From the NCBI RefSeq assembly GCF_022846255.1, contig NZ_AP025682.1: a DNA stretch of 64,000 bases; one strand, 5' to 3'. Within the stretch, counting starts at the first letter, position 1; each line of letters opens with the position of its first letter. The stretch comes from Escherichia coli (GTDB lineage: Bacteria; Pseudomonadota; Gammaproteobacteria; Enterobacterales; Enterobacteriaceae). A program made the translations under genes and the position numbers. Shown here piece after piece: positions 13,748 to 34,892 of the stretch. A model generated the notes under the pieces. That model was not told where the DNA came from. It searched no databases and saw only the letters and a program-made list of their open reading frames with translations.

Positions 13748-15447
13748 GCCAGAGAATTACTATTGATCCGGTAACCCGTATTGAAGGGCATTTACGCATC
13801 GATTGCGAAATCGAAAATGGCGTCGTTTCGAAAGCATGGGCTTCCGGTACCATGTGGCGCGGCATGGAAGAGATCGTGAAAAACCGCGATCCGCGCGATG
13901 CATGGATGATTGTGCAACGTATCTGTGGCGTATGTACTACCACTCACGCGCTGTCTTCCGTTCGTGCGGCAGAAAGTGCGCTGAATATCGACGTTCCGGT
14001 TAACGCGCAATACATCCGTAACATCATTCTGGCTGCGCACACCACGCATGACCATATTGTTCATTTCTATCAGCTTTCGGCGCTGGACTGGGTGGACATC
14101 ACTTCTGCACTGCAAGCCGATCCGACCAAAGCCTCCGAAATGCTGAAAGGCGTTTCGACCTGGCATCTGAACAGCCCGGAAGAGTTCACCAAAGTTCAGA
14201 ACAAGATCAAAGATCTGGTTGCCAGCGGTCAGTTGGGTATTTTCGCCAATGGCTACTGGGGTCACCCGGCAATGAAACTGCCGCCGGAAGTGAACCTGAT
14301 TGCGGTAGCGCACTACCTGCAGGCGCTGGAGTGCCAGCGTGACGCTAACCGCGTTGTGGCGCTGCTGGGCGGTAAAACGCCGCATATTCAGAACCTGGCG
14401 GTAGGTGGTGTCGCGAACCCGATCAACCTCGACGGTCTGGGTGTGCTGAACCTTGAGCGCCTGATGTACATCAAGTCCTTCATCGACAAGCTGAGCGACT
14501 TTGTTGAGCAGGTTTACAAGGTTGATACTGCAGTTATCGCTGCGTTCTACCCGGAATGGCTGACGCGCGGTAAAGGTGCGGTGAACTACCTGAGCGTGCC
14601 GGAATTCCCGACCGACAGTAAAAATGGCAGCTTCCTGTTCCCGGGCGGCTACATTGAGAATGCGGATCTGTCCTCGTATCGTCCGATCACTTCTCATTCC
14701 GATGAATACCTGATCAAAGGGATTCAGGAAAGCGCGAAGCACTCCTGGTATAAAGACGAAGCGCCGCAGGCACCGTGGGAAGGTACCACCATTCCGGCTT
14801 ATGATGGTTGGTCTGACGACGGTAAATATTCCTGGGTGAAATCACCGACTTTCTACGGCAAAACGGTAGAAGTGGGTCCGCTGGCTAACATGCTGGTGAA
14901 ACTGGCGGCAGGACGCGAGTCTACCCAGAACAAACTGAATGAAATCGTTGCGATTTATCAGAAACTGACTGGCAACACGCTGGAAGTGGCGCAGCTGCAC
15001 TCCACGCTGGGCCGTATTATTGGTCGTACCGTTCACTGCTGTGAATTGCAGGATATCCTGCAAAATCAATACAGTGCACTGATCACCAATATCGGCAAAG
15101 GCGATCACACCACCTTTGTGAAGCCGAACATTCCGGCAACGGGTGAGTTCAAAGGCGTAGGCTTCCTCGAAGCACCGCGCGGTATGCTCTCTCACTGGAT
15201 GGTGATCAAAGACGGTATTATCAGTAACTACCAGGCGGTTGTTCCATCAACCTGGAACTCTGGCCCGCGTAACTTCAATGATGACGTCGGTCCTTACGAG
15301 CAGTCGCTGGTGGGTACACCGGTTGCCGATCCGAATAAACCGCTGGAAGTGGTGCGTACCATTCACTCCTTCGACCCGTGCATGGCCTGTGCGGTACACG
15401 TAGTGGATGCCGACGGCAACGAAGTGGTTTCAGTGAAGGTTCTGTAA
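13744..15447 (+). CDS. hybC: Hydrogenase 2 [NiFe] large subunit, 567 aa
   Basis: N-terminal RICGVCTTTH and C-terminal DPCMACAVH Ni-binding Cys motifs. Confidence 0.95.
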   Translation: MSQRITIDPVTRIEGHLRIDCEIENGVVSKAWASGTMWRGMEEIVKNRDPRDAWMIVQRICGVCTTTHALSSVRAAESALNIDVPVNAQYIRNIILAAHTTHDHIVHFYQLSALDWVDITSALQADPTKASEMLKGVSTWHLNSPEEFTKVQNKIKDLVASGQLGIFANGYWGHPAMKLPPEVNLIAVAHYLQALECQRDANRVVALLGGKTPHIQNLAVGGVANPINLDGLGVLNLERLMYIKSFIDKLSDFVEQVYKVDTAVIAAFYPEWLTRGKGAVNYLSVPEFPTDSKNGSFLFPGGYIENADLSSYRPITSHSDEYLIKGIQESAKHSWYKDEAPQAPWEGTTIPAYDGWSDDGKYSWVKSPTFYGKTVEVGPLANMLVKLAAGRESTQNKLNEIVAIYQKLTGNTLEVAQLHSTLGRIIGRTVHCCELQDILQNQYSALITNIGKGDHTTFVKPNIPATGEFKGVGFLEAPRGMLSHWMVIKDGIISNYQAVVPSTWNSGPRNFNDDVGPYEQSLVGTPVADPNKPLEVVRTIHSFDPCMACAVHVVDADGNEVVSVKVL

Positions 15448-15941
15448 TGCGTATTTTAGTCTTAGGGGTCGGCAATATTTTGCTGACCGATGAAGCCATC
15501 GGTGTGCGGATTGTTGAAGCGTTAGAGCAACGATACATTCTGCCGGATTATGTTGAGATCCTCGATGGCGGCACGGCGGGAATGGAGCTGCTTGGCGACA
15601 TGGCAAATCGCGATCATCTGATTATTGCGGATGCCATTGTGTCGAAAAAGAACGCACCGGGAACGATGATGATCCTGCGGGATGAAGAAGTTCCGGCGTT
15701 GTTTACCAACAAAATCTCTCCGCATCAGCTTGGCCTGGCCGACGTATTGTCGGCCCTGCGCTTCACCGGCGAGTTTCCGAAAAAGCTGACCCTGGTCGGC
15801 GTGATCCCGGAATCACTGGAGCCGCACATCGGTTTGACGCCGACGGTCGAAGCGATGATTGAACCTGCGCTTGAGCAGGTTTTGGCTGCGCTGCGCGAAT
15901 CAGGCGTGGAAGCTATCCCACGGGAGGCGACTCATGACTGA
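15447..15941 (+). CDS. hybD: Hydrogenase 2 maturation endopeptidase, 164 aa
   Basis: ORF-track 187 aa trimmed to MRILVLGVGN; ATG overlaps hybC stop (TAATG). Confidence 0.9.
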   Translation: MRILVLGVGNILLTDEAIGVRIVEALEQRYILPDYVEILDGGTAGMELLGDMANRDHLIIADAIVSKKNAPGTMMILRDEEVPALFTNKISPHQLGLADVLSALRFTGEFPKKLTLVGVIPESLEPHIGLTPTVEAMIEPALEQVLAALRESGVEAIPREATHD

Positions 15942-16422
15942 AGAGATAGCAGGTTTCCAGACCTCCCCGAAGGTGCAAGTACAGGCAGCTTTTGAAGAAA
16001 TTGCCCGGCGTTCGATGCATGATCTCTCTTTTCTGCATCCTTCAATGCCGGTGTATGTTTCTGACTTTACGCTGTTCGAAGGTCAGTGGACGGGGTGTGT
16101 GATCACCCCGTGGATGCTGAGTGCAGTTATCTTCCCCGGCCCGGATCAACTCTGGCCGCTGCGCAAAGTGAGTGAAAAAATTGGTCTGCAACTGCCGTAT
16201 GGCACTATGACCTTTACTGTTGGTGAACTGGATGGTGTTTCGCAATACCTCTCCTGCTCGCTGATGTCGCCGCTTTCGCACAGCATGTCGATTGAAGAGG
16301 GCCAACGGCTGACGGATGACTGCGCCCGAATGATCCTTTCGCTGCCAGTCACCAATCCGGATGTACCACACGCAGGGCGTCGTGCCCTGCTATTTGGCCG
16401 CAGGAGTGGCGAAAATGCATGA
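15934..16422 (+). CDS. hybE: Hydrogenase 2-specific chaperone, 162 aa
   Basis: ORF-track 187 aa trimmed to MTEEIAGFQ; 8-nt overlap with hybD. Confidence 0.88.
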   Translation: MTEEIAGFQTSPKVQVQAAFEEIARRSMHDLSFLHPSMPVYVSDFTLFEGQWTGCVITPWMLSAVIFPGPDQLWPLRKVSEKIGLQLPYGTMTFTVGELDGVSQYLSCSLMSPLSHSMSIEEGQRLTDDCARMILSLPVTNPDVPHAGRRALLFGRRSGENA

Positions 16423-21919: not shown

Positions 21920-22612
21920 CTAGTGATAACCACGCGCGGTCATAAAATCCGTAATCGCTTTTTCTGCATCAACCAGCACCTTTTCCAGTGGCTGATTGGC
22001 GTCGATATCAACCAGTTGTGCACCACCAAAGGTTAACTGTGGCGTTATGGCAATCTTCCTCGCCAGCGATTCCCGTTTATGGTCGGGTTTACGCGCGCAG
22101 GCAACTTCAAGGTCAACATTGAGTTTGATGACCAGATCGGGCTTGTGGCTCGCCATCCAGTGAAATGCTTTACGTTCCTGACTTGCCAGCCATGAGACAA
22201 AACGACCACCTTCAACGTTAGGCGGAAACACCGTACCATCATAAGCGCCAGGAATCTGGTCCTGCGGATAACGGTCGGTTAAAACAATTAACCCGCGACG
22301 ACGACAGGCAAGCATATGACGAAAGCGCAGTAAGCGACGGGCGACAAACGCTGTAATTACCAGCGCCGGAACTGGTCCAGGCAATTTTTTTGCTGTTTTT
22401 ACCTGATTTCGTTCAATTGTTTTATGTAAGGATTTTCCCATCAACGGTAATTTTGTCACTGCACGACCGACATTTCCGGCCTGTTTTCCTAAATGAACTC
22501 TTTCGGCAGCACCATATTTTTCGACAACGGTAATAAGATGTTCACACACCGTTGACTTGCCTGAACCATCGCTACCAATAACGGCAATTAATGGAGGTAT
22601 TATTGACTGCAT
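21920..22612 (-). CDS. yghT: P-loop NTPase of unknown function (paralogue of yghS/yghR), 230 aa
   Basis: Walker [10 protein letters not shown]; shared TDRYPQ and ARKPDH motifs with yghS and yghR. Confidence 0.85.
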
Positions 22613-22786: not shown

Positions 22787-23500
22787 GTGAATCAACGTAA
22801 TATGTCAATAATTAATTCCACGCCAGTGCGTGTTATTGCCATTGTAGGATGTGATGGTTCAGGTAAATCGACCCTCACGGCAAGCCTGGTAAATGAACTG
22901 GCAGCAACAATGCCAACAGAACACATTTATCTCGGGCAATCGTCCGGGCGAATTGGCGAATGGATTTCACAGCTCCCTGTTATTGGCGCACCTTTTGGGC
23001 GTTATCTGCGAAGTAAAGCGGCACATGTGCACGAAAAGCCCTCCACACCACCTGGCAATATTACTGCGCTGGTTATCTATCTGCTTTCCTGCTGGCGGGC
23101 GTACAAGTTTCGCAAAATGTTGTGTAAAAGCCAGCAAGGCTATCTGCTCATCACCGACCGCTACCCGCAGGTTGAAGTGCCGGGTTTTCGCTTTGATGGC
23201 CCGCAATTGGCAAAAACCACGGGCGGTAACGGTTGGATAAAAATGTTAAGGCAGCGCGAGCTGAAGCTGTACCAATGGATGGAGTCTTATTTGCCCGTAT
23301 TGTTGATTCGTCTTGGCATTGATGAACAAACCGCGTTTGCGCGTAAACCTGACCACCAACTGGCGGCGTTACAGGAAAAAATCGCCGTTACGCCGCAACT
23401 GACATTTAATGGCGCAAAGATCCTTGAACTGGATGGTCGGCAACCCGCCGATGAAATTCTGCAAGCGTCACTACGCGCAATTCACGCCGCGCTTTCCTGA
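22787..23500 (+). CDS. yghS: P-loop NTPase of unknown function, 237 aa
   Basis: GTG start; Walker A GCDGSGKST; TDRYPQ and ARKPDH motifs. Confidence 0.85.
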   Translation: MNQRNMSIINSTPVRVIAIVGCDGSGKSTLTASLVNELAATMPTEHIYLGQSSGRIGEWISQLPVIGAPFGRYLRSKAAHVHEKPSTPPGNITALVIYLLSCWRAYKFRKMLCKSQQGYLLITDRYPQVEVPGFRFDGPQLAKTTGGNGWIKMLRQRELKLYQWMESYLPVLLIRLGIDEQTAFARKPDHQLAALQEKIAVTPQLTFNGAKILELDGRQPADEILQASLRAIHAALS

Positions 23501-23531: not shown

Positions 23532-24290
23532 ATGGACGCACTACAAACACAAACTGTTAATAGTACAACCGCGCCGCAGCCCAACTACATTCCGGGGCTG
23601 ATTGCGGTGGTCGGGTGTGATGGCACCGGTAAATCCACACTGACCACCGACCTGGTGAAATCGCTGCAACAACACTGGCAAACCGAGCGGCGCTATCTGG
23701 GGCTGCTCTCGGGCGAAGACGGCGACAAAATCAAACGATTGCCGTTGGTTGGCGTCTGGCTCGAACGGCGACTGGCGGCCAAATCCTCGAAAACCCAAAG
23801 CATGAAAACCAAATCTCCAGCGCTATGGGCGGCGGTGATTATGTACTGCTTCTCGCTGCGAAGAATGGCGAATCTACGCAAGGTTCAGCGACTGGCGCAA
23901 AGTGGCGTTCTGGTGGTCAGCGATCGCTTCCCGCAGGCTGAAATTTCGGGCTTTTATTATGACGGACCGGGGATCGGCGTCGAACGTGCGACCGGGAAAA
24001 TCAGCATGTTTCTGGCGCAGCGCGAACGGCGTTTATACCAACAAATGGCGCAACACCGTCCTGAATTAATCATTCGTTTGGGGATTGATATTGATACTGC
24101 CATCTCCCGCAAGCCTGACCATGACTATGCCGAGCTGCAGGACAAAATCGGCGTCATGTCGACGATTGGCTATAACGGCACAAAAATTCTTGAGATTGAT
24201 TCCAGAGCGCCCTACAGCGAAGTGCTGGAACAGGCACAGAAGGCGGTTTCTCTGGTTGCCATCGTTTCTGACCGCCGAAGTTTAACTTAA
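23532..24290 (+). CDS. yghR: P-loop NTPase of unknown function, 252 aa
   Basis: Walker A GCDGTGKST; SDRFPQ and SRKPDH motifs. Confidence 0.85.
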   Translation: MDALQTQTVNSTTAPQPNYIPGLIAVVGCDGTGKSTLTTDLVKSLQQHWQTERRYLGLLSGEDGDKIKRLPLVGVWLERRLAAKSSKTQSMKTKSPALWAAVIMYCFSLRRMANLRKVQRLAQSGVLVVSDRFPQAEISGFYYDGPGIGVERATGKISMFLAQRERRLYQQMAQHRPELIIRLGIDIDTAISRKPDHDYAELQDKIGVMSTIGYNGTKILEIDSRAPYSEVLEQAQKAVSLVAIVSDRRSLT

Positions 24291-24335: not shown

Positions 24336-25685
24336 TTGGCGGGTTTTAACATCAAACATTGGTTTGCAGATGGCGCGTTTCGCACCATTATTCGCAATAG
24401 CGCCTGGTTAGGCTCCAGTAATGTCGTGAGCGCTTTGCTGGGTCTGTTGGCGCTCTCGTGTGCCGGTAAAGGGATGACGCCCGCCATGTTTGGCGTACTG
24501 GTGATTGTACAATCGTACGCCAAGTCGATCAGCGATTTTATTAAGTTTCAGACATGGCAGCTGGTGGTTCAGTACGGAACACCAGCATTAACCAACAATA
24601 ATCCGCAGCAATTTCGCAATGTCGTCTCATTTTCCTTCTCGCTGGATATCGTCAGCGGCGCGGTGGCGATTGTCGGCGGCATTGCCTTACTCCCTTTTCT
24701 TTCCCATTCATTAGGTCTGGATGACCAAAGCTTTTGGCTGGCAGCGCTGTATTGCACGCTCATTCCTTCAATGGCTTCCTCCACGCCGACCGGCATTCTG
24801 CGTGCGGTAGATCGCTTCGATCTAATTGCTGTACAGCAAGCGACGAAACCTTTTCTGCGCGCAGCGGGGAGCGTCGTTGCCTGGTATTTTGACTTTGGTT
24901 TTGCGGGTTTTGTTATTGCCTGGTACGCCTCGAATCTTGTTGGCGGCACCATGTACTGGTGGTTTGCCGCACGTGAATTACGCCGCAGAAATATCCATAA
25001 CGCGTTCAAATTGAATCTGTTTGAGTCTGCCCGACACATCAAAGGCGCGTGGAGTTTTGTCTGGTCAACCAACATTGCCCATTCCATCTGGTCGGCGCGT
25101 AATTCGTGCAGCACAGTGTTGGTGGGGATCGTGTTAGGACCCGCTGCCGCCGGGTTATTTAAAATCGCCATGACATTCTTCGACGCCGCCGGAACGCCAG
25201 CGGGTTTACTGGGCAAAAGTTTTTACCCAGAGGTGATGCGTTTAGATCCGCGTACCACCAGACCGTGGTTGTTAGGCGTGAAGTCAGGTTTACTGGCGGG
25301 CGGAATCGGTATTCTGGTGGCGCTCGCGGTGTTGATTGTCGGCAAGCCGCTCATTTCGCTGGTGTTTGGCGTTAAGTATCTCGAAGCGTATGACCTGATT
25401 CAGGTGATGCTGGGCGCAATTGTGATCTCGATGCTGGGCTTCCCTCAGGAGTCATTGCTATTGATGGCGGGAAAACAGCGCGCTTTTCTCGTGGCGCAAA
25501 CCATCGCCTCAATCGGCTACATCGTATTGCTGTTCATGTTCTGTCATCTGTTTGGCGTGCTGGGAGCAGCGTTTGCTTATTTCGGCGGTCAATGTCTGGA
25601 TGTGGTGCTTTCGCTAATTCCGACCTTAAAGGCATTTTTTCAGCGCCATTCCTTGCTTTATAACGCAGCCGGAGAGAAATCCTGA
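24336..25685 (+). CDS. yghQ: Polytopic membrane protein, putative MOP-superfamily lipid/polysaccharide flippase; start uncertain (TTG 24336 or ATG 24474/24486)
   Basis: Long hydrophobic ORF with about 10-12 predicted TM segments; stop overlaps next gene start (ATGA). Confidence 0.7.
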   Translation: MAGFNIKHWFADGAFRTIIRNSAWLGSSNVVSALLGLLALSCAGKGMTPAMFGVLVIVQSYAKSISDFIKFQTWQLVVQYGTPALTNNNPQQFRNVVSFSFSLDIVSGAVAIVGGIALLPFLSHSLGLDDQSFWLAALYCTLIPSMASSTPTGILRAVDRFDLIAVQQATKPFLRAAGSVVAWYFDFGFAGFVIAWYASNLVGGTMYWWFAARELRRRNIHNAFKLNLFESARHIKGAWSFVWSTNIAHSIWSARNSCSTVLVGIVLGPAAAGLFKIAMTFFDAAGTPAGLLGKSFYPEVMRLDPRTTRPWLLGVKSGLLAGGIGILVALAVLIVGKPLISLVFGVKYLEAYDLIQVMLGAIVISMLGFPQESLLLMAGKQRAFLVAQTIASIGYIVLLFMFCHLFGVLGAAFAYFGGQCLDVVLSLIPTLKAFFQRHSLLYNAAGEKS

Positions 25686-26521
25686 TGATGAGAAAATATT
25701 TCCCGCTAGAGGCGAGCGAGCGTCTATTTGTTGCGATTGAAGAAGATGATGTCGTTGATGCACAGGTCAGTTTGCCGCCGACTATCGCACTAAGTTGTAC
25801 CACCGAAATCATCCATGATAATTACGCGTTATGCCTGCAATTCTGGCTCAATGGCGTCAATCGCCAGGAGTTACTGCGTTTAATATGCAAACAGGCCAAA
25901 GGCGATGAGCTGACTGCTGATGAGCGCAAACAATTTAAATACATGCGAGCGCGCTACAAGCACCTGCGTTTTGCGCAACGGCTGTATTTAAAGAAGCATC
26001 AGGCCGGATTTTTATTCGGCAAAACGACCGTTTTTTTGGGGCGTTTTCAGGATGGCTTTCGTAACGGTAAGAAAAATATTGTGTCGTTTTACAGTAACCT
26101 GTTACGTGTTTATTTGAGCTCCCCTGTCTGGTGGCTGGTGAACTATTCATTGCGCCATAGCCAGTTAGAAACCGTGAACGGTTTTATCGCCTACCGCCAG
26201 AAGCAAATGTACATCCTGAAAGAGATTATTGCTAAACCGCAACTAACTGGCAGGGAATTTCATGATGTGCGAAAAATCATCAGCCAGCAGGTTTCTTATT
26301 ACGACACCTTAAGATCGCTTGATCCTGAAAATAAAGAGGCGTTACTGATTTCCCGTTTTCTCGCCGCCATTAATGGTCTGATGGGGGATAAGCACGACGA
26401 CATGGTGGCGGATGATATGGAGAACCGCCGGTCATATGATGCACCGGTGGCGCTGGATAGCGATATTCGCCAGCGTTTAGAACTGCTTATTTCGCGTTTC
26501 CCACTCTATCCGGAGCAATAA
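25685..26521 (+). CDS. Hypothetical cytoplasmic protein, 278 aa, no family recognised
   Basis: ORF with GGAGAGA RBS 8 nt upstream; translationally coupled to yghQ and the next ORF. Confidence 0.65.
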   Translation: MMRKYFPLEASERLFVAIEEDDVVDAQVSLPPTIALSCTTEIIHDNYALCLQFWLNGVNRQELLRLICKQAKGDELTADERKQFKYMRARYKHLRFAQRLYLKKHQAGFLFGKTTVFLGRFQDGFRNGKKNIVSFYSNLLRVYLSSPVWWLVNYSLRHSQLETVNGFIAYRQKQMYILKEIIAKPQLTGREFHDVRKIISQQVSYYDTLRSLDPENKEALLISRFLAAINGLMGDKHDDMVADDMENRRSYDAPVALDSDIRQRLELLISRFPLYPEQ

Positions 26522-27081
26522 TGCCATCTCGTTGGATTTTCGCTCTGATCATCGCACTCTTAGCGCCAGGCGCGGCGGCACACAATTTCGTCACTGGCAA
26601 AACGGTTACCCCTGTTTATATCCAGGAAGGCGGCGAGCTGCTTCTGAATAGCGACGACGAAATTCACTACCAAAAGTGGAACAGCACACAATTGACGGGA
26701 AAAGTTCGCATTATTCAGTACATCGCCGGGCGTAAGTCGGCGAAGAAAAAGAACTCACTGTTAATTAAAGCGGTTGAAGCGGCAAACTTTCCGCAGGATC
26801 GTTTTCAGCCCACCACCATTGTGAACACTGATGATGCCATCTTTGGTACCGGCTATTTTGTCGTTGGCAAAATCGAAAAAAATAAACGCCGCTATCCGTG
26901 GGCGCAATTCGTTATTGACGGCAATGGACAGGGACGCGTTGCCTGGCACTTGCAGGAGCAGAGTTCAACCATTCTGGTGCTGAATAAAACCGGGCAAATT
27001 CAGTGGGCAAAGGACGGCAGCCTGACGCCGGAAGAGGTAGATCATGTCATTGCGCTGGCGCAGAAGCTGATCAATGAATAA
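26521..27081 (+). CDS. Hypothetical exported protein with N-terminal signal peptide, 186 aa
   Basis: N-terminus MPSRWIFALIIALLAPGAAAHNF resembles a Sec signal; ATG overlaps preceding stop (TAATG). Confidence 0.65.
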   Translation: MPSRWIFALIIALLAPGAAAHNFVTGKTVTPVYIQEGGELLLNSDDEIHYQKWNSTQLTGKVRIIQYIAGRKSAKKKNSLLIKAVEAANFPQDRFQPTTIVNTDDAIFGTGYFVVGKIEKNKRRYPWAQFVIDGNGQGRVAWHLQEQSSTILVLNKTGQIQWAKDGSLTPEEVDHVIALAQKLINE

Positions 27082-27110: not shown

Positions 27111-28181
27111 ATGAAGCTGGTTGAACACTACATCATGCGTGGTACGCGCCGTCTGGTGCTGATTATCGTCGGTTTTCTGATCTTTATTTTCGCCAGCTAC
27201 TCCGCACAGCGTTATCTGACCGAAGCGGCAAATGGGACATTAGCTCTTGATGTTGTGCTGGATATCGTTTTCTACAAAGTGCTGATTGCACTGGAGATGT
27301 TGTTACCTGTTGGACTGTATGTGTCAGTTGGCGTGACGCTAGGGCAGATGTATACCGACTCGGAAATTACCGCTATCTCTGCGGCGGGGGGCAGTCCGGG
27401 ACGCTTGTACAAAGCCGTTCTTTATCTGGCGATACCGCTAAGTATTTTTGTCACCCTTCTGTCGATGTATGGTCGTCCGTGGGCTTATGCGCAGATTTAT
27501 CAACTGGAGCAACAGTCACAGTCGGAGCTGGATGTTCGCCAGTTGCGGGCAAAGAAATTTAACACTAACGATAACGGACGAATGATCCTTTCGCAGACGG
27601 TTGATCAGGATAATAATCGCCTGACTGACGCGCTGATTTATACTTCTACTGCTAATCGAACCCGCATTTTCCGCGCCCGTTCGGTTGATGTGGTTGACCC
27701 ATCACCTGAGAAACCGACCGTTATGTTGCATAACGGGACCGCCTATCTTCTCGATCATCAGGGGCGTGACGACAACGAACAGATCTACCGTAATCTGCAA
27801 TTACATCTGAATCCGCTGGATCAAAGCCCTAACGTCAAACGCAAAGCAAAATCGGTCACGGAGCTGGCGCGCTCCGCCTTTCCTGCCGATCATGCCGAAC
27901 TGCAATGGCGACAAAGCCGTGGCCTGACAGCATTGTTGATGGCGCTGCTGGCCATTTCATTAAGTCGGGTAAAACCGCGGCAAGGGCGATTTTCAACGTT
28001 ATTGCCACTGACGTTGCTGTTTGTTGCCATTTTTTATGGCGGCGACGTCTGCCGTACGCTGGTGGCTAACGGCGCGATTCCCCTCATTCCTGGTTTGTGG
28101 TTAGTACCCGGACTCATGCTAATGGGCCTGCTGATGTTGGTCGCACGCGACTTCTCTTTGCTGCAGAAATTTTCCCGATGA
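27111..28181 (+). CDS. LptF/LptG-family (YjgP/YjgQ) permease-like membrane protein, 356 aa
   Basis: 3 TM + about 150-aa hydrophilic domain + 3 TM topology read from translation; N-terminus resembles LptF. Confidence 0.7.
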   Translation: MKLVEHYIMRGTRRLVLIIVGFLIFIFASYSAQRYLTEAANGTLALDVVLDIVFYKVLIALEMLLPVGLYVSVGVTLGQMYTDSEITAISAAGGSPGRLYKAVLYLAIPLSIFVTLLSMYGRPWAYAQIYQLEQQSQSELDVRQLRAKKFNTNDNGRMILSQTVDQDNNRLTDALIYTSTANRTRIFRARSVDVVDPSPEKPTVMLHNGTAYLLDHQGRDDNEQIYRNLQLHLNPLDQSPNVKRKAKSVTELARSAFPADHAELQWRQSRGLTALLMALLAISLSRVKPRQGRFSTLLPLTLLFVAIFYGGDVCRTLVANGAIPLIPGLWLVPGLMLMGLLMLVARDFSLLQKFSR

Positions 28182-29257
28182 ATGTTTTCAGTCGCTATTT
28201 AATCCGTCATCTCTTTCTCGGTTTTGCCGCCGCCGCAGGGCTATTGCTGCCGCTTTTTACCACCTTCAACCTGATTAACGAACTGGATGATGTCAGCCCG
28301 GGTGGTTATCGCTGGACTCAGGCGGTGCTGGTGGTGCTGATGACCTTACCGCGCACACTGGTCGAACTTTCGCCGTTTATCGCCTTATTGGGAGGGATTG
28401 TCGGCCTGGGGCAGTTATCGAAAAACAGTGAGCTTACCGCCATTCGCAGCACGGGGTTTTCTATCTTCCGTATTGCACTGGTGGCGCTGGTTGCCGGGAT
28501 ATTGTGGACTGTTTCATTAGGCGCGATAGATGAGTGGGTGGCGTCGCCATTGCAGCAACAGGCGCTGCAAATCAAATCGACTGCCACCGCGTTGGGGGAG
28601 GACAATGACATTATCGGCAATATGCTTTGGGCCAGGCGCGGTAATGAATTTGTGACGGTGAAATCGCTGAACGAGCAGGGCCAGCCGGTGGGCGTGGAGA
28701 TTTTTCATTACCGCGACGATCTCTCGCTCGAATCCTACATTTATGCGCGCAGTGCCACCATTGAAGACGATAAAACGTGGATCCTGCATGGTGTGAATTA
28801 TAAAAAATGGTTGAATGGCAAAGAAACGCTGGAAACATTAGATAATCTTGCCTGGCAATCGGCCTTCACCAGTATGAATCTTGAAGAGTTATCGATGCCG
28901 GGGAATACTTTTTCTGTCCGTCAGCTTAATCATTACATCCATTATTTGCAGGATACCGGGCAACCCAGCAGCGAATACCACCTTGCACTGTGGGAAAAAC
29001 TGGGGCAACCGATCTTGACTCTGGCGATGATTTTGCTGGCTGTGCCGTTTACCTTTAGTGTCCCGCGCTCGCCAGGGATGGGTAGCCGTCTCGCTGTAGG
29101 CGTCATCGTTGGTTTACTCACCTGGATCAGCTATCAAATCATGGTCAATCTGGGATTGCTATTTGCGTTGAGCGCACCTGTTACCGCGCTCGGTTTACCG
29201 GTAGCGTTTGTGCTGGTGGCGTTGAGCCTGGTGTATTGGTATGACAGACAACATTAA
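28178..29257 (+). CDS. LptF/LptG-family (YjgP/YjgQ) permease-like membrane protein, 359 aa
   Basis: ORF-track 386 aa trimmed to MNVFSRYLIRHLF; ATG overlaps upstream stop (ATGA); same 3+3 TM topology. Confidence 0.7.
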   Translation: MNVFSRYLIRHLFLGFAAAAGLLLPLFTTFNLINELDDVSPGGYRWTQAVLVVLMTLPRTLVELSPFIALLGGIVGLGQLSKNSELTAIRSTGFSIFRIALVALVAGILWTVSLGAIDEWVASPLQQQALQIKSTATALGEDNDIIGNMLWARRGNEFVTVKSLNEQGQPVGVEIFHYRDDLSLESYIYARSATIEDDKTWILHGVNYKKWLNGKETLETLDNLAWQSAFTSMNLEELSMPGNTFSVRQLNHYIHYLQDTGQPSSEYHLALWEKLGQPILTLAMILLAVPFTFSVPRSPGMGSRLAVGVIVGLLTWISYQIMVNLGLLFALSAPVTALGLPVAFVLVALSLVYWYDRQH

Positions 29258-29288
29258 ACCCGCCGTGGCGCAACACCACGGCGGGTTC
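29257..29288. terminator. Bidirectional terminator hairpin between convergent permease and lipid operons
   Basis: 12-bp perfect stem aacccgccgtgg / ccacggcgggtt with 8-nt loop. Confidence 0.55.
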
Positions 29289-29291
29289 ACA

Positions 29292-30464
29292 TTACTGCTT
29301 CTGAGTAGCAAATGCCTGAATGATGGCATCGATTTGCTCACGACTGTGGGCAGCGTTTACGCTACAGCGCAGCAGCGTGATGCCAGCAGGCGCGGCAGGT
29401 GGCAGGATAAGATTCACATAAACGCCCAGCGAAATAAGCTCGCGCCAGATGCGTAAACCTTCCTCTTTCGAACCGATTATTACTGGCACTACCGGGCTAA
29501 TATGTGAACTTAACTCGTAACCCAGTTTTTGCAGACCGTCATACAGATGGTTGGCGTTATCCATCAGCTTTTGCCGCAGCTCTGGTTGTGAGGCAATGGT
29601 TCTTAACGACGAGCGCACGGTCGCAATGCAGGACGGAGAAGGAGAGGCGGTAAAAATATACGGGCGGCTGCCGTAGCGCAGCACTTCCATCGCTTCCGAA
29701 CCGACAGCAAAACCGCCAATCGAGGCCAGACTTTTACTGAAGGTGCCGACGATAATATCCACGTCGTCTTCAACGCCAACGGCTTCAACCAGTCCGCGCC
29801 CCGTAGCGCCTAACACGCCAAACGAATGTGCTTCATCGACAATCAAATAACCACCGAGACGACGTTTGATATCAACAATTTCTGCCAGCGGCGCAACGTC
29901 ACCGAGCATACTGTAGATGCCTTCAACGATAATAATCGCCTCTTTCGCCCGTTCACCGAGGCGGACCATGCGCCGTTCCAGATCGTTGACGTCATTATGG
30001 CGGAAACGAATAATCTCCGCGCCGCCGAGAGAACAGGCGTCATAAATACTGGCGTGGCTGTCGGCATCCAGTAACACCACGGCGTTATGGTCGGCAAGTG
30101 CGCTGATGACACCTAAATTAGCGGTATAACCGGTTGAAAAAACGATAGCGGTAGGGCGATTGAAAAACTCGGCAATCTCTTTCTCTAACGCCAGATGCGG
30201 CGCATAACTGCCGTTTGCCATACGAGAACCGGTGGTGCCGGTGCCTTGGGCCGCTAACGCTGCCTGACCTTCGCGGATAGCATCATGATTAAAGGTTAAA
30301 CCGAGATAATTATTGGTCCCGGCCAGAATCACTTTTTTATTGCCGATCCGGCCTTCGGTGGCGGAATATACTTCATCAATACAGGTGCCAAATGGTGTTA
30401 ACCCGTTGTCACTAAATTGCAGGCGCTCGCCAGCAAGGCGCGCATATTTATCGTATAGCCCCAT
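29292..30464 (-). CDS. PLP-dependent alpha-oxoamine synthase family acyltransferase (serine palmitoyltransferase / 8-amino-7-oxononanoate synthase-like), 390 aa
   Basis: PLP-lysine motif GTFSKSLAS and DEAHSFG; class-II aminotransferase fold inferred from translation. Confidence 0.8.
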   Translation of the reverse strand: MGLYDKYARLAGERLQFSDNGLTPFGTCIDEVYSATEGRIGNKKVILAGTNNYLGLTFNHDAIREGQAALAAQGTGTTGSRMANGSYAPHLALEKEIAEFFNRPTAIVFSTGYTANLGVISALADHNAVVLLDADSHASIYDACSLGGAEIIRFRHNDVNDLERRMVRLGERAKEAIIIVEGIYSMLGDVAPLAEIVDIKRRLGGYLIVDEAHSFGVLGATGRGLVEAVGVEDDVDIIVGTFSKSLASIGGFAVGSEAMEVLRYGSRPYIFTASPSPSCIATVRSSLRTIASQPELRQKLMDNANHLYDGLQKLGYELSSHISPVVPVIIGSKEEGLRIWRELISLGVYVNLILPPAAPAGITLLRCSVNAAHSREQIDAIIQAFATQKQ

Positions 30465-30712
30465 TATTTATTCTCCAGCCATGGAAGTAGAGTTTCCATT
30501 AATTGCGCAGGGGTTTTGACATCCAGCAGAATATTAATAGGAATGGAAATATCGAATCTGTCTTCCAGCATCATTAAGAGATCCATCACTTTGATCGACT
30601 CCAGGCCAAGATCGTTGACGAGATCGCTGTCGGGCTTAATTTCCACACCGTTTTCGACCAAATCCTGTAAACAGGAAAGGATGTAATCCATTACTATTTC
30701 ACGATTTACCAT
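30464..30712 (-). CDS. Acyl carrier protein, 82 aa
   Basis: Phosphopantetheine-attachment motif DLGLESIKVMDL; small acidic protein; stop overlaps next start. Confidence 0.8.
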   Translation of the reverse strand: MVNREIVMDYILSCLQDLVENGVEIKPDSDLVNDLGLESIKVMDLLMMLEDRFDISIPINILLDVKTPAQLMETLLPWLENK

Positions 30713-30743: not shown

Positions 30744-31658
30744 TCAAAATAGCCCGTTGCGTAATGCGTGTTCCAGGCTAATCCCGGGAAACCAATTAAT
30801 ATCTTCAGAAATACGGTTATTACTTGCCGACCAGTCGGCATGAGTTAATTCACGGATTTTCGAACGAGTCAGCATCGGTTCTTTACCCGCCAGACGGCTC
30901 AACGCGGTACTGATATCCGCAAGGCAGGTGAGTAGCGGCAGAGGAATACCGACCATCCGCACGGAACCACAGCGGACATCGGCAACAAGCTGTTGGACAC
31001 GTTGCCAGTCATAGCCTCCGGCGACGCCATCGCATAATTCATAGGTTTGCGTCTGTACAGTTTCGGCGCTTAACCACTGACCCACTGCTTGCGCAAAATC
31101 GGTGACGTGAAGAAAAGAGAGCAGTGTCTCTGGCGTGCCAAGTCGTGGCAGCAGACCGCGCAGCATCCAGTCAAACAGCGGTTTTAACTCTTTATCGCCG
31201 GGACCATACACGGCTGTCGGGCGAAAAACGCCCAACGTAATTTCGTCAGCCATTGCAGTCAGCCGTTGTTCGGCGACGTGTTTGGAATTTGCGTACCAGG
31301 AGAGTTCGGGATGGCGCGCCGCCAGCGAAGAGATAAACAGAAAACGTTGGCAAAAGCCGCTCTCTTTTGCCGCTTGCATCAGGCGCAGGCTGCCGTCAAC
31401 GTTGCAGCGGGTAAAAATCTCTTCTTTGTGCCCGCGCACTTGCCCGGCGCAATGGACCACCGCGCTGGCTCCGGCAACCAGTTCGCTAAGCGAATGTGTA
31501 TCTTCCAGCGAACCGCGCACCCAAGTGAGATTATCATTGACGTGAGCGCGGGCAGTACGCGTCAATGCGCGAACGTGAAAGCCGCGGGCGAGCAGGTTAT
31601 CAATAATATATTTACCGATAAACCCGGTAGCGCCCGTCACCGCGACAGTTTGATTCAT
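30744..31658 (-). CDS. NAD(P)-dependent epimerase/dehydratase-family reductase (extended SDR), 304 aa
   Basis: ORF-track 374 aa trimmed to MNQTVAVTGATGFIGKY (Rossmann GxxGxxG); ATG overlaps upstream stop (ATGA). Confidence 0.78.
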   Translation of the reverse strand: MNQTVAVTGATGFIGKYIIDNLLARGFHVRALTRTARAHVNDNLTWVRGSLEDTHSLSELVAGASAVVHCAGQVRGHKEEIFTRCNVDGSLRLMQAAKESGFCQRFLFISSLAARHPELSWYANSKHVAEQRLTAMADEITLGVFRPTAVYGPGDKELKPLFDWMLRGLLPRLGTPETLLSFLHVTDFAQAVGQWLSAETVQTQTYELCDGVAGGYDWQRVQQLVADVRCGSVRMVGIPLPLLTCLADISTALSRLAGKEPMLTRSKIRELTHADWSASNNRISEDINWFPGISLEHALRNGLF

Positions 31659-33379
31659 GCCAGGGATTCCTGCACATGAAGACTGGCAGCATAAGCCTTC
31701 TGATAACGTTTTTTCGCTTCCGCACGGGCAGGCTTGCCGGAGGATGTTCGGGGAATACTGTGGGGCGGCAACAGATCGATATCCGCGGTAACGCCAAATT
31801 CGCTTTGGATCCGAGCTGCCAGCGCGTGGATAAGCTGCCCGCGACGTTCTTCGTCGCTGATCCGACACTGGATCTGCAAAATGATTTTTTCCTGGGCGGT
31901 AACAAAAGCAATCGCATCGCCAGAATGAATTTCCGGCTCCTGTTCCGCAATGTATTCAATATCCTGCGGCCAGATATTACGGCCACGAATAATAATCAGA
32001 TCTTTAATGCGTCCGGTGACATACAGATAACCGTCCAGCAGATAACCAAGGTCTCCGGTGTCTAACCAGCCCGTCGCGGCAATCTCGTCTTGCGAAACCT
32101 GGTCGCCAAAGTACCCGCTCATCAGGCTGGGGCCGGAGATGCAAATATGGCCTACCACACGTTCCGCGACAGGTATATCTGCTTCATTGCGGATTTCAAT
32201 GCCATGTTCCGGCAACGCTTTACCGCAGTTGACGAAAGTCGATACGGCGCGTGTTTCAGCACCCGGCGCGACGGCTTTACCCTGGTATTCGAGGATGTCG
32301 CGATCCACTTCGTTAACCACAACCCCGCAGGCTTCATCAGAGAAGCTGACAGCCAGCGCATTTTCTGCCAGTCCGTAGCACGGCATGAAAGTTTTATCGT
32401 CAAAGTTAACCTGACGGAAACATTCAGCGAATTGATGGAGTTGTTCTGCGGATATGGGTTCTGCGCCAATACCAGCGACGCGCCAGCAGGAAAGATCCAG
32501 TTCAGCGAGATCTTTTTCATTCACGCGGCGCTGGCACAATTCATAGCCAAACGGCGGTGCAACGGAAACGGTGCCACGATTTTTACTGATCAATTTAAGC
32601 CATTGCAGAGGACGCATGGCAAAATCCTGAGTGCGCAAATAATCTACTGAAAGCTGCGTGGCGACGGGGGTCAGGAGAAAGCCGACCAGTCCCATATCAT
32701 GGTAGAAAGGCAGCCAGGAGACGCAGCGGTCGCCAGGGCGTAATTTAATCCCATCGTGGCTTATAGCACGTAGATTAGCCATCACTTCGTGATGGGTGAT
32801 AATGACGCCACGGGGAAAACGGGTGCTGCCGGAGGTGTACTGGAGGTAGGCGATATCGTTTGGAACTGGACGCTGGAGCACAACATCGGCTTCCGGTAAT
32901 GCCTTAAACCAGGCGTGGCTTAAAACATGTAATTCGGGGTTGTTGTTATGCGTCGCGGCATTGACCAGTGGCAACCACTCATCACCAGTGATAATGGCTG
33001 CGGGCTGGCAACTTGCCAGTAAACCCTGCAGTTTGGCGCTCCAGGAATCCCGCTGACCTACGCCCATTGGAATCGCCAACGGGACGGCGACTAAGCCGGC
33101 ATACTGGCAGGCAAAAAAAGCCTCTACAAACCCGCTACTCGTTTCGGCAATCAGCGCCACGCGATCGCCTTTTTTCAGGTTCAGCGATAACAACCTTTTC
33201 GCACCAGCTTCGGCACGCGCTTTTAACGTCTGATATTCCAGTTGATCTTCAAGTTGGCAACGTCTGTCATAAAAATTCATTCCGGCGCTACTCAGAGCGG
33301 CGTAGTCCAAAGCATCAACCAGCGTTGGAAAATCGGCATAGCGCATAGGTAGGGAATGCGTAAAGATTTTATTAGACAT
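31655..33379 (-). CDS. Fatty-acyl-AMP ligase / acyl-ACP synthetase-like adenylating enzyme, about 574 aa
   Basis: AMP-binding motifs YTSGSTRFPRG and GRIKDLIIIRGRNIWPQDIE; start set at ATG 33379 (alternative TTG 33406). Confidence 0.8.
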   Translation of the reverse strand: MSNKIFTHSLPMRYADFPTLVDALDYAALSSAGMNFYDRRCQLEDQLEYQTLKARAEAGAKRLLSLNLKKGDRVALIAETSSGFVEAFFACQYAGLVAVPLAIPMGVGQRDSWSAKLQGLLASCQPAAIITGDEWLPLVNAATHNNNPELHVLSHAWFKALPEADVVLQRPVPNDIAYLQYTSGSTRFPRGVIITHHEVMANLRAISHDGIKLRPGDRCVSWLPFYHDMGLVGFLLTPVATQLSVDYLRTQDFAMRPLQWLKLISKNRGTVSVAPPFGYELCQRRVNEKDLAELDLSCWRVAGIGAEPISAEQLHQFAECFRQVNFDDKTFMPCYGLAENALAVSFSDEACGVVVNEVDRDILEYQGKAVAPGAETRAVSTFVNCGKALPEHGIEIRNEADIPVAERVVGHICISGPSLMSGYFGDQVSQDEIAATGWLDTGDLGYLLDGYLYVTGRIKDLIIIRGRNIWPQDIEYIAEQEPEIHSGDAIAFVTAQEKIILQIQCRISDEERRGQLIHALAARIQSEFGVTADIDLLPPHSIPRTSSGKPARAEAKKRYQKAYAASLHVQESLA

Positions 33380-33749: not shown

Positions 33750-34892
33750 ATGGAATGCGATCTGCTGATGATTAAAATTGAAAAAGTAATTAATAAAAAA
33801 GACCTTAAGGCATTTATCGCTTTTCCGTCATCACTTTATCCCGATGATCCAAACTGGATACCCCCTTTATTCATTGAACGTAGCGAGCATTTGTCTGCGA
33901 AGAATCCGGGGACGGACCATATCATCTGGCAGGCGTGGGTGGCAAAAAAAGCGGGGCAGATAGTTGGGCGTATTACCGCGCAAATAGATACCTTGCACCG
34001 TGAGCGTTACGGTGAAGATACCGGTCATTTCGGAATGATTGATGCCATTGATGATCCGCAGGTTTTTGCCGCGTTGTTTGGCGCAGCGGAGGCGTGGTTG
34101 AAGTCACAAGGTGCAAGTAAGATCAGCGGGCCTTTCAGCCTGAATATCAATCAGGAAAGCGGATTACTGATTGAAGGTTTTGACACACCTCCCTGTGCGA
34201 TGATGCCACACGGCAAACCGTGGTATGCCGCGCATATTGAACAACTGGGTTATCACAAAGGCATTGATTTACTGGCGTGGTGGATGCAGCGAACCGATCT
34301 CACTTTCTCTCCGGCGCTAAAAAAACTGATGGATCAGGTGCGCAAAAAAGTGACCATTCGCTGCATCAATCGCCAGCGGTTTGCCGAAGAGATGCAGATC
34401 CTGCGTGAGATTTTCAATTCTGGCTGGCAGCACAACTGGGGATTTGTGCCGTTTACCGAACATGAATTCGCGACCATGGGCGATCAACTTAAATATCTGG
34501 TGCCGGACGATATGATCTACATCGCTGAGATTGATTCTGCACCCTGCGCGTTTATTGTTGGCTTGCCGAACATCAACGAGGCGATTACCGATCTGAACGG
34601 ATCGCTCTTTCCCTTCGGCTGGGCAAAATTGCTGTGGCGTTTGAAAGTCAGCGGTGTGCGAACTGCGCGAGTGCCGCTGATGGGCGTGCGGGACGAGTAT
34701 CAGTTCAGCCGCATCGGCCCGGTGATTGCGCTGTTATTGATTGAAGCCTTACGCGATCCGTTTGCCCGCCGGAAGATCGATGCGCTGGAAATGTCATGGA
34801 TCCTCGAAACCAATACAGGCATGAATAACATGCTGGAACGCATTGGGGCGGAGCCGTACAAGCGTTACCGATTGTATGAAAAGCAGATTTGA
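33750..34892 (+). CDS. yghO: Uncharacterised protein, possible N-acyltransferase; start uncertain (ATG 33750 or 33768), 380 aa
   Basis: ORF divergent from the lipid operon and convergent with glcC; symbol assigned by position relative to glcC from memory. Confidence 0.6.
   Translation: MECDLLMIKIEKVINKKDLKAFIAFPSSLYPDDPNWIPPLFIERSEHLSAKNPGTDHIIWQAWVAKKAGQIVGRITAQIDTLHRERYGEDTGHFGMIDAIDDPQVFAALFGAAEAWLKSQGASKISGPFSLNINQESGLLIEGFDTPPCAMMPHGKPWYAAHIEQLGYHKGIDLLAWWMQRTDLTFSPALKKLMDQVRKKVTIRCINRQRFAEEMQILREIFNSGWQHNWGFVPFTEHEFATMGDQLKYLVPDDMIYIAEIDSAPCAFIVGLPNINEAITDLNGSLFPFGWAKLLWRLKVSGVRTARVPLMGVRDEYQFSRIGPVIALLLIEALRDPFARRKIDALEMSWILETNTGMNNMLERIGAEPYKRYRLYEKQI

Follow-up and report, generated by a model that had tools for sequence, protein, structure and literature searches.

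In a 64,000-nucleotide stretch of an Escherichia coli chromosome (NZ_AP025682.1, hereafter the window), two consecutive genes, lptF2 and lptG2, encode a second copy of the permeases LptF and LptG. By analogy with Caulobacter, we consider it likely that they provide the membrane subunits of an accessory LptB2FG-type lipid extractor within the E. coli sphingolipid (ceramide) cluster. The observations made here cover the family and fold of the proteins, the linkage and co-inheritance of the genes, the purifying selection on them and the conservation of residues that contact LptB. A second LptF/LptG pair in a sphingolipid locus is not new in kind, and the E. coli locus itself has appeared in print.

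The original prediction, made from the letters of the window, held that both open reading frames (ORFs) belong to the YjgP/YjgQ (LptF/LptG) family, and the profile search that it had proposed as a check bore this out. The NCBIfam equivalog cut-offs are 230 bits for TIGR04407 (LptF) and 240 bits for TIGR04408 (LptG); LptF2 scored 319.8 bits with the former (E 1.6e-95, profile positions 2-346 of 347) and LptG2 scored 298.8 bits with the latter (E 3.8e-89). The cross-matches were weak, at 68.9 bits for LptF2 to the LptG profile and 83.5 bits for LptG2 to the LptF profile, and both proteins matched Pfam PF03739 from end to end (E 2.6e-54 for LptF2 and E 2.2e-68 for LptG2). The topology claimed for the two proteins, three transmembrane (TM) segments, a periplasmic domain and three further TM segments, was recovered as well. 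In an AlphaFold2 model of LptF2 (pLDDT 90.6), three long helices and a short coupling helix precede a beta domain, and three more helices follow it; helices span residues 2-40, 46-82, 96-138, 258-284, 297-319 and 328-355, and the strands lie at 150-232. A Foldseek search with this model returned the LptF chains of solved LptB2FG complexes as the best PDB matches, with a TM-score of 0.81 to 9dok_F. For LptG2, the topology was derived from a full-length alignment to solved LptG chains and from a hydropathy profile that fits 3+3 TM segments. lptF2 and lptG2 are genuine full-length members of the LptF/LptG family.

The housekeeping E. coli LptB2FG(C) complex (b4261/b4262) shares with the pair the Pfam and TIGRFAM families, the fold of six TM segments and a beta-jellyroll, and the conserved coupling-helix glutamates. 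The housekeeping lptFG operon also has the same F-then-G order, overlapping stop and start codons and no ATPase gene. The two pairs differ in that K-12 LptF is 29% identical to LptF2 and K-12 LptG is 28% identical to LptG2 over 350 amino acids, in being accessory rather than universal, and in lying in a ceramide-synthesis context rather than between pepA and yjgR. Judged by sequence comparison, the pair is not a recent duplicate of housekeeping lptFG, because identity to the host LptF and LptG is 28-29% and LptF2 is 55% identical to a metagenomic protein encoded in a locus with spt, the gene for serine palmitoyltransferase.

The stop codon of lptF2 and the start codon of lptG2 overlap in an ATGA at 28178-28181, read from the sequence exactly where it had been claimed, and lptG2 is predicted to be translationally coupled to lptF2 through this overlap. 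Automatic ORF calling begins lptG2 too far upstream, at the GTG of position 28097; in E. coli E2348/69 the annotated start is the ATG at 28178, and the alignment with canonical LptG begins at residue 2-3. The automatic call for cerR, a gene of the neighboring lipid operon, is likewise stretched to a GTG at 31868, overlapping aasR, and the family matches start at residue 73 of this long ORF. The annotated starts, 28178 for lptG2 and 31658 for cerR, fit homology better than the long ORF calls. In some public assemblies, gene calls of 553 amino acids (P0001, P0002 and P0006) fuse a YtfJ domain (PF09695) with LptF2 (PF03739). Because the ytfJ and lptF2 frames differ in the window, these calls most likely stem from frameshifts or from errors of assembly and do not represent real fusions.

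The pair had also been described as converging on a lipid operon, and this operon turned out to be the ceramide pathway. spt, on the minus strand, ends at 29292, with its 3' end 35 bases past the lptG2 stop, and together with yghO, the gene of the N-acyltransferase, the minus-strand operon corresponds to the ceramide pathway aasR-cerR-acpR-spt known from the literature. Spt, AcpR and AasR of E. coli BL21(DE3) were assayed biochemically and are catalytically active (PMC9386255). On the other side, a ytfJ-family gene lies directly upstream of lptF2 in a common operon and is kept with the cluster in three genera. The genes yghT, yghS, yghR, yghQ, a gene for a CHAD-like protein, ytfJ, lptF2, lptG2, spt, acpR, cerR and aasR occur together in Escherichia species and in Pseudocitrobacter, both with yghO, and also in Mangrovibacter, where the spt operon is on the other side. 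In the two Mangrovibacter loci (L008 and L009, 1-12147), aasR-cerR-acpR-spt lies upstream of yghT and not downstream of lptG2, and the operons are still adjacent; yghO was not found within the 21 kb looked at. The thirteen cluster genes are intact and syntenic over three genera at 57-87% protein identity. In comparisons within Escherichia, the ratio of nonsynonymous to synonymous substitution rates (dN/dS) was 0.05-0.09 for both genes, and lptF2 and lptG2 are under strong purifying selection.

Among 5426 complete E. coli genomes, the canonical lptFG genes were present in 5425, the lptF2/lptG2 pair in 4131 (76%) and the full 16-kb cluster in 4050. In K-12-like strains, an IS5 element has taken the place of the 3' end of yghQ and of all that follows up to and including aasR. 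In one such strain (L025, NZ_CP104328.1, 4836-8201), IS5 leaves a truncated yghQ and an intact yghO, and lptF2G2 and the ceramide operon are lost. The O157:H7 genomes are without the entire yghT-yghO segment. Homologs of LptF2 at 65-80% identity were found in Citrobacter, Hafnia, Shimwellia, Sodalis, Serratia, Erwinia and Raoultella. The LptF2 scan of genome contigs gave close relatives only, at ten loci, and the wider breadth comes from protein searches.

LptF2 was searched against 1.84 billion representative proteins. After the Enterobacterales matches and fragments, the next match was the 55%-identical protein of the metagenomic spt locus, followed by many at 27-38%, and these relatives outranked the solved canonical LptF chains, which scored 77-114 bits in a separate PDB search. 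Nine non-enterobacterial relatives, all on long contigs, were sampled across the match list. Six of the nine are encoded within 10 kb of aasR-cerR-acpR-spt (L013, L017, L018, L019, L021 and L023), and five of these six spt loci have a YghO-like gene nearby whose product is 47-64% identical to YghO. The remaining three are flanked by Metallophos, DAGK_cat, NTP_transf_3 and Elm1 genes, which recur in spt loci. The identity of lptF2/G2 and that of the ceramide genes drop in parallel from locus to locus, a pattern that would fit co-transfer of these genes as a unit. The yghS-ytfJ operon module is absent from the other sampled spt loci, save for a single YghT-like gene in L013, which is the closest spt locus outside the enterobacteria. 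A neighbor-joining tree of 45 LptF-type sequences placed K-12 LptF far from all others and grouped E. coli LptF2 with a spt-linked protein; this tree was star-like with a single canonical outgroup and was given little weight.

Pairs of the LptF2/G2 type also occur in the ceramide-phosphoglycerate-type loci of other Proteobacteria, where they are 31-55% identical to LptF2 and are its closest counterparts outside Enterobacterales; published cases are those of Azotobacter vinelandii, Pseudomonas luteola, Nitrosomonas eutropha and Sphingomonas wittichii, and the six metagenomic loci with spt (L013, L017, L018, L019, L021 and L023) are further examples. These loci contain DAGK_cat, NTP_transf_3, Metallophos and CDP-OH_P_transf genes and often an MsbA-like exporter of the ATP-binding cassette (ABC) type, whereas the enterobacterial locus has a MOP flippase and the YghRST/CHAD/YtfJ set instead. 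In L013, L017 and L019, an MsbA-like ABC exporter (ABC_membrane plus ABC_tran) adjoins spt where the enterobacterial cluster has the MOP-family YghQ, which suggests that different flippases serve the same pathway. One locus, L024 (9203-12194), from a metagenome-assembled genome in a cluster named Planctomycetota, has a distant LptF2/G2-like pair directly beside a divergently oriented gene for an ABC_tran ATPase of 239 amino acids, together with DAGK_cat, NTP_transf_3 and Metallophos genes and no spt within 10 kb. This lineage may encode the ATPase together with the pair.

No ABC_tran protein is encoded between pitB and glcC, and none in the cluster, in agreement with the claimed lack of an ABC ATPase gene in the operon. 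This absence is not anomalous, because the canonical K-12 lptFG operon, between pepA and yjgR, is likewise without lptB; an ATPase-free operon is normal for this family. YghT, YghS and YghR were considered as missing ATPase partners and rejected, as they have a Walker A motif without the ABC signature motif and show weak similarity to deoxythymidine monophosphate (dTMP) kinases. In the canonical transporter, LptF E84 and LptG E88 are the coupling-helix glutamates that dock in the LptB groove (PMC5082905). E85 of LptF2 aligns with LptF E84, and E85 of LptG2 aligns with LptG E88. The coupling-helix glutamate is invariant in the 45 LptF-type sequences and present in all LptG2 sequences examined. 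At the other key positions described in the same study, LptF2 retains Y80 and A90 identically along with E84, and LptG2 retains L83, E88, L89 and G96, with the other two conservatively changed. This conservation is compatible with docking on LptB, although it is no proof of it.

The residues that contact lipopolysaccharide (LPS) were compared in the same way. K34, K40, K62, R133 and R136 of LptG form the binding contacts with the lipid A phosphates in Shigella and E. coli, and the contact with the inner core is made by K41 (PMC6744409). LptG2 has N, N, D, D and L in place of the LptG contacts K34, D37, K40, K41 and R133 and keeps basic residues at K62 and R136; in LptF2, R occupies the positions of both LptF R33 and LptF K317. 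The K34, K40 and K41 positions are acidic or neutral in most other pairs examined. The lost LptG lysines were considered as a mark of a non-LPS substrate, and this idea was rejected since the canonical LptG of Pseudomonas aeruginosa, a true LPS exporter, is also without them, with A, N and D at the K34, K40 and K41 positions. Because Pseudomonas LptG is similar at those positions, the contact residues say nothing about the substrate. The RefSeq name "LPS export ABC transporter permease" probably overstates what is known of the substrate of this pair.

The closest functional precedent comes from Caulobacter crescentus. A second LptC, LptF and LptG were named in the Caulobacter sphingolipid cluster in 2024, with orthologs in betaproteobacterial and gammaproteobacterial clusters, and it was proposed that the Caulobacter paralogs selectively transport phosphosphingolipids, powered by the housekeeping LptB (PMC11324152). 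A preprint of April 2026 (bioRxiv 10.64898/2026.04.12.717747) reported that Caulobacter lptF2, lptG2 and lptC2 can be deleted only in the absence of spt or the ceramide kinase gene cpgB, that LptF2 and LptG2 co-purify and that both pull down the sole LptB. The same preprint states that many alphaproteobacterial and gammaproteobacterial sphingolipid loci have lptF2/G2, and it drew the sphingolipid operons of E. coli UTI89 beside the Caulobacter locus in its Figure 2B. Our literature search returned no study of the E. coli pair itself beyond this figure. The evidence that the pair depends genetically on sphingolipid synthesis, that F2 and G2 form a complex and that LptB binds to them comes from Caulobacter alone. 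The Caulobacter LptF2/LptG2 genes (CCNA_01214/CCNA_01213; CC_1156/CC_1155) are, like the E. coli ones, an extra pair without lptB in a locus with spt, acpR, cerR, aasR and a ceramide synthase gene, and a candidate flippase gene is nearby in both, CC_1166 in Caulobacter and yghQ in E. coli. The E. coli cluster is without the LptC2 and the CpgA/B/C-type head-group genes of Caulobacter and has YghT/S/R, the CHAD-fold protein and YtfJ instead. The suggestion in the original prediction of a dedicated export route with a borrowed LptB thus gains support from the Caulobacter precedent, the spt-linked relatives, co-inheritance and the conserved glutamates, but it is not new, as it coincides with the model now in print, at which it had arrived independently from the letters of the sequence, and for E. 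coli it is drawn by analogy.

Taken together with this precedent, a working model can be outlined. AasR, AcpR, Spt, CerR and YghO would make ceramide in the cytoplasm or at the inner leaflet, the P-loop and CHAD-like proteins would probably modify the lipid head group, and the MOP-family YghQ would probably flip the lipid to the outer leaflet of the inner membrane. The LptF2/LptG2 heterodimer would then take the lipid into its cavity while docking by its coupling helices on the cell's only LptB dimer. ATP binding and hydrolysis would expel the lipid into the beta-jellyroll domains and onward to the outer membrane, most likely over the housekeeping Lpt bridge. A broader proposal is more tentative, and we hold it as possible but doubtful: Enterobacterales, and with them three quarters of E. 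coli strains, would produce a sphingolipid that has so far escaped detection, with a non-Caulobacter head group built by YghT/S/R and the CHAD-fold protein, which is of a phosphate-polymer-binding type. A MOP flippase and not an MsbA-type one would act on it, LptB2-LptF2G2 would be aided by YtfJ in place of LptC2, and LptB would serve two extractors.

Several points weigh against a role of the pair in sphingolipid export. About a quarter of E. coli genomes (24% of the complete ones) are without the pair, which we counted as loss. No report of a sphingolipid in E. coli was found in the literature search, and no LptC-like gene was found in the cluster. The head-group genes differ between E. coli and Caulobacter, and the orthology of the E. 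coli pair to Caulobacter LptF2/G2 rests on shared context and on the statements of the published papers. For E. coli, we infer by analogy what the pair transports, that LptB drives it, that a flippase acts on the lipid and how the lipid travels past the inner membrane. In addition, the cluster-bearing strain BL21(DE3) with empty vectors gave no 3-oxo-sphinganine on thin-layer chromatography under laboratory conditions. Because BL21(DE3) was without a sphingoid product in this assay, the E. coli cluster may be silent or expressed only under particular conditions. The same result could be explained if the pair were intact but idle, part of a horizontally acquired cluster that is silent, is being lost and has no present role in envelope lipids, and it would agree with this that 24% of complete genomes do not have the cluster, K-12-like strains showing a deletion linked to IS5 and O157:H7 having none of the segment. 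We regard this explanation as unlikely, given the dN/dS of 0.05-0.09 on both genes, the thirteen genes kept intact and syntenic over three genera at 57-87% protein identity, and the catalytic activity of the E. coli Spt, AcpR and AasR.

Two other explanations concern the substrate and the energy source. A spare or alternative LPS exporter, for instance for modified LPS, with the spt neighborhood being incidental, would account for the passing of the LptF and LptG equivalog cut-offs, for a fold that matches LPS-exporting LptF, for the basic residues kept at LptF R33 and K317 and for the end of TM1 in LptG2, which resembles that of Pseudomonas LptG. Such an exporter is nevertheless very improbable: identity to the host proteins is only 28-29%, the pair and the ceramide genes are inherited together without exception, rearranged loci included, linkage to spt also marks the nearest relatives of the pair in other lineages, the K-12-like and O157 strains without the segment are still normal LPS producers, and the deletion of the Caulobacter homologs hinged on sphingolipid synthesis and not on LPS. 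It was also considered that the pair exports not the ceramide but another lipid or a glycolipid, the product of its own plus-strand operon (yghS, yghR, yghQ, the CHAD-like gene and ytfJ), or that it is driven by an ATPase other than LptB. lptF2G2 are predicted to be co-transcribed with yghS through ytfJ and not with spt, the plus-strand module is missing from the other sampled spt loci apart from the YghT-like gene in L013, and the distant relative L024 has an ABC ATPase gene beside its pair. However, the two operons are adjacent in every genome examined, rearranged ones included. The ceramide pathway is the constant partner, because lptF2/G2-like pairs adjoin spt in loci without the yghQRST module. 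As for another ATPase, YghT/S/R are without the ABC signature and the coupling helices match the LptB-docking ones, and we consider another lipid or another ATPase quite unlikely. Extraction of a sphingolipid with the help of LptB is the reading that we prefer.

The window covers the E. coli chromosome from hyb/gss/pitB to glcC (the yghT-yghO region) and is 98.8% identical to E2348/69. The features of the cluster are listed in the table.

Table. Features of the lptF2/lptG2 and ceramide cluster, with positions in the window
Feature	Position	Strand	Basis and remarks
lptF2, LptF-type permease, second copy	27111..28181	+	ATG start, 356 amino acids
lptG2, LptG-type permease, second copy	28178..29257	+	359 amino acids counted from ATG
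yghT, third P-loop kinase-like paralog, divergent	21920..22612	-	family searches; kept with cluster
yghS, P-loop kinase-like paralog, first plus-strand operon gene	22787..23500	+	44% identical to YghR
yghR, P-loop kinase-like	23532..24290	+	Walker A, no ABC signature; weak dTMP-kinase similarity
yghQ, MOP-family flippase-like membrane protein	24336..25685	+	weak match to NF007773 (E 1.4e-8); several TM segments
CHAD-like helical-fold protein, 278 amino acids, no family match	25685..26521	+	
ytfJ-family periplasmic protein, signal peptide	26521..27081	+	TIGR01626 213.8 bits (cut-off 151); N-terminal hydrophobic segment
GC-rich hairpin, 16 bp, between lptG2 and spt stops	29255..29289	.	terminator scan and sequence
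spt, serine palmitoyltransferase	29292..30464	-	NF047599 595 bits (cut-off 500); named spt in E2348/69; ECD_02854
acpR, specialized acyl carrier protein	30464..30712	-	acyl carrier protein family matches; ECD_02853
cerR (epi), NAD-dependent reductase, ceramide pathway	30744..31658	-	epimerase/short-chain dehydrogenase-reductase matches; E2348/69 annotation; ECD_02852
aasR, acyl-AcpR synthetase (fatty acyl-AMP ligase)	31655..33379	-	E2348/69 annotation, 99.7% identical; ECD_02851
yghO, putative ceramide synthase (N-acyltransferase "aca")	33750..34892	+	yghO annotation; ECD_02850 in PMC9386255

The hairpin between the two converging operons likely acts as a bidirectional terminator, as judged from its sequence. 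YghT, YghS and YghR are paralogs with 34-44% mutual identity, a Walker A motif and only weak dTMP-kinase similarity, and the RefSeq name "dTMP kinase" on two of them is probably a misannotation. YghQ is the candidate flippase for the lipid. The gene for the 278-residue CHAD-like protein overlaps both of its neighbors, at its start with the stop of yghQ and at its stop with the start of ytfJ. The CHAD-like protein was also considered as an LptC-like partner and rejected, since it has no predicted TM segment or signal peptide and its fold is CHAD-like. The YtfJ protein matched no solved structure by sequence, the Pfam search with YghO gave no match, and no DAGK_cat ceramide kinase was found in the E. 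coli cluster. Identity to E2348/69 (L001, with lptG2 at 15179-16255) is uneven along the cluster. LptF2 is 99.7% identical with a synonymous substitution rate (dS) of 0, LptG2 is 96.4% identical with a dS of 0.05, and the values for the CHAD-like protein and for CerR are again close to 96%. Such unevenness may be a sign of recombination breakpoints within the cluster.

E. coli serves as the reference organism in studies of LPS transport, and LptB2FG is a target for antibiotics; macrocycles of the zosurabalpin class bind the Acinetobacter complex. With the second LptF/LptG pair known as a kind, the remaining value of the E. coli locus lies in its lipid product, in the timing of synthesis and in the role of the unusual accessory genes. 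Should a second extractor operate on the same LptB in most natural E. coli strains, LptB would be shared by two lipid export routes, and K-12, in which the cluster was lost through IS5, would be an incomplete model of the E. coli envelope.

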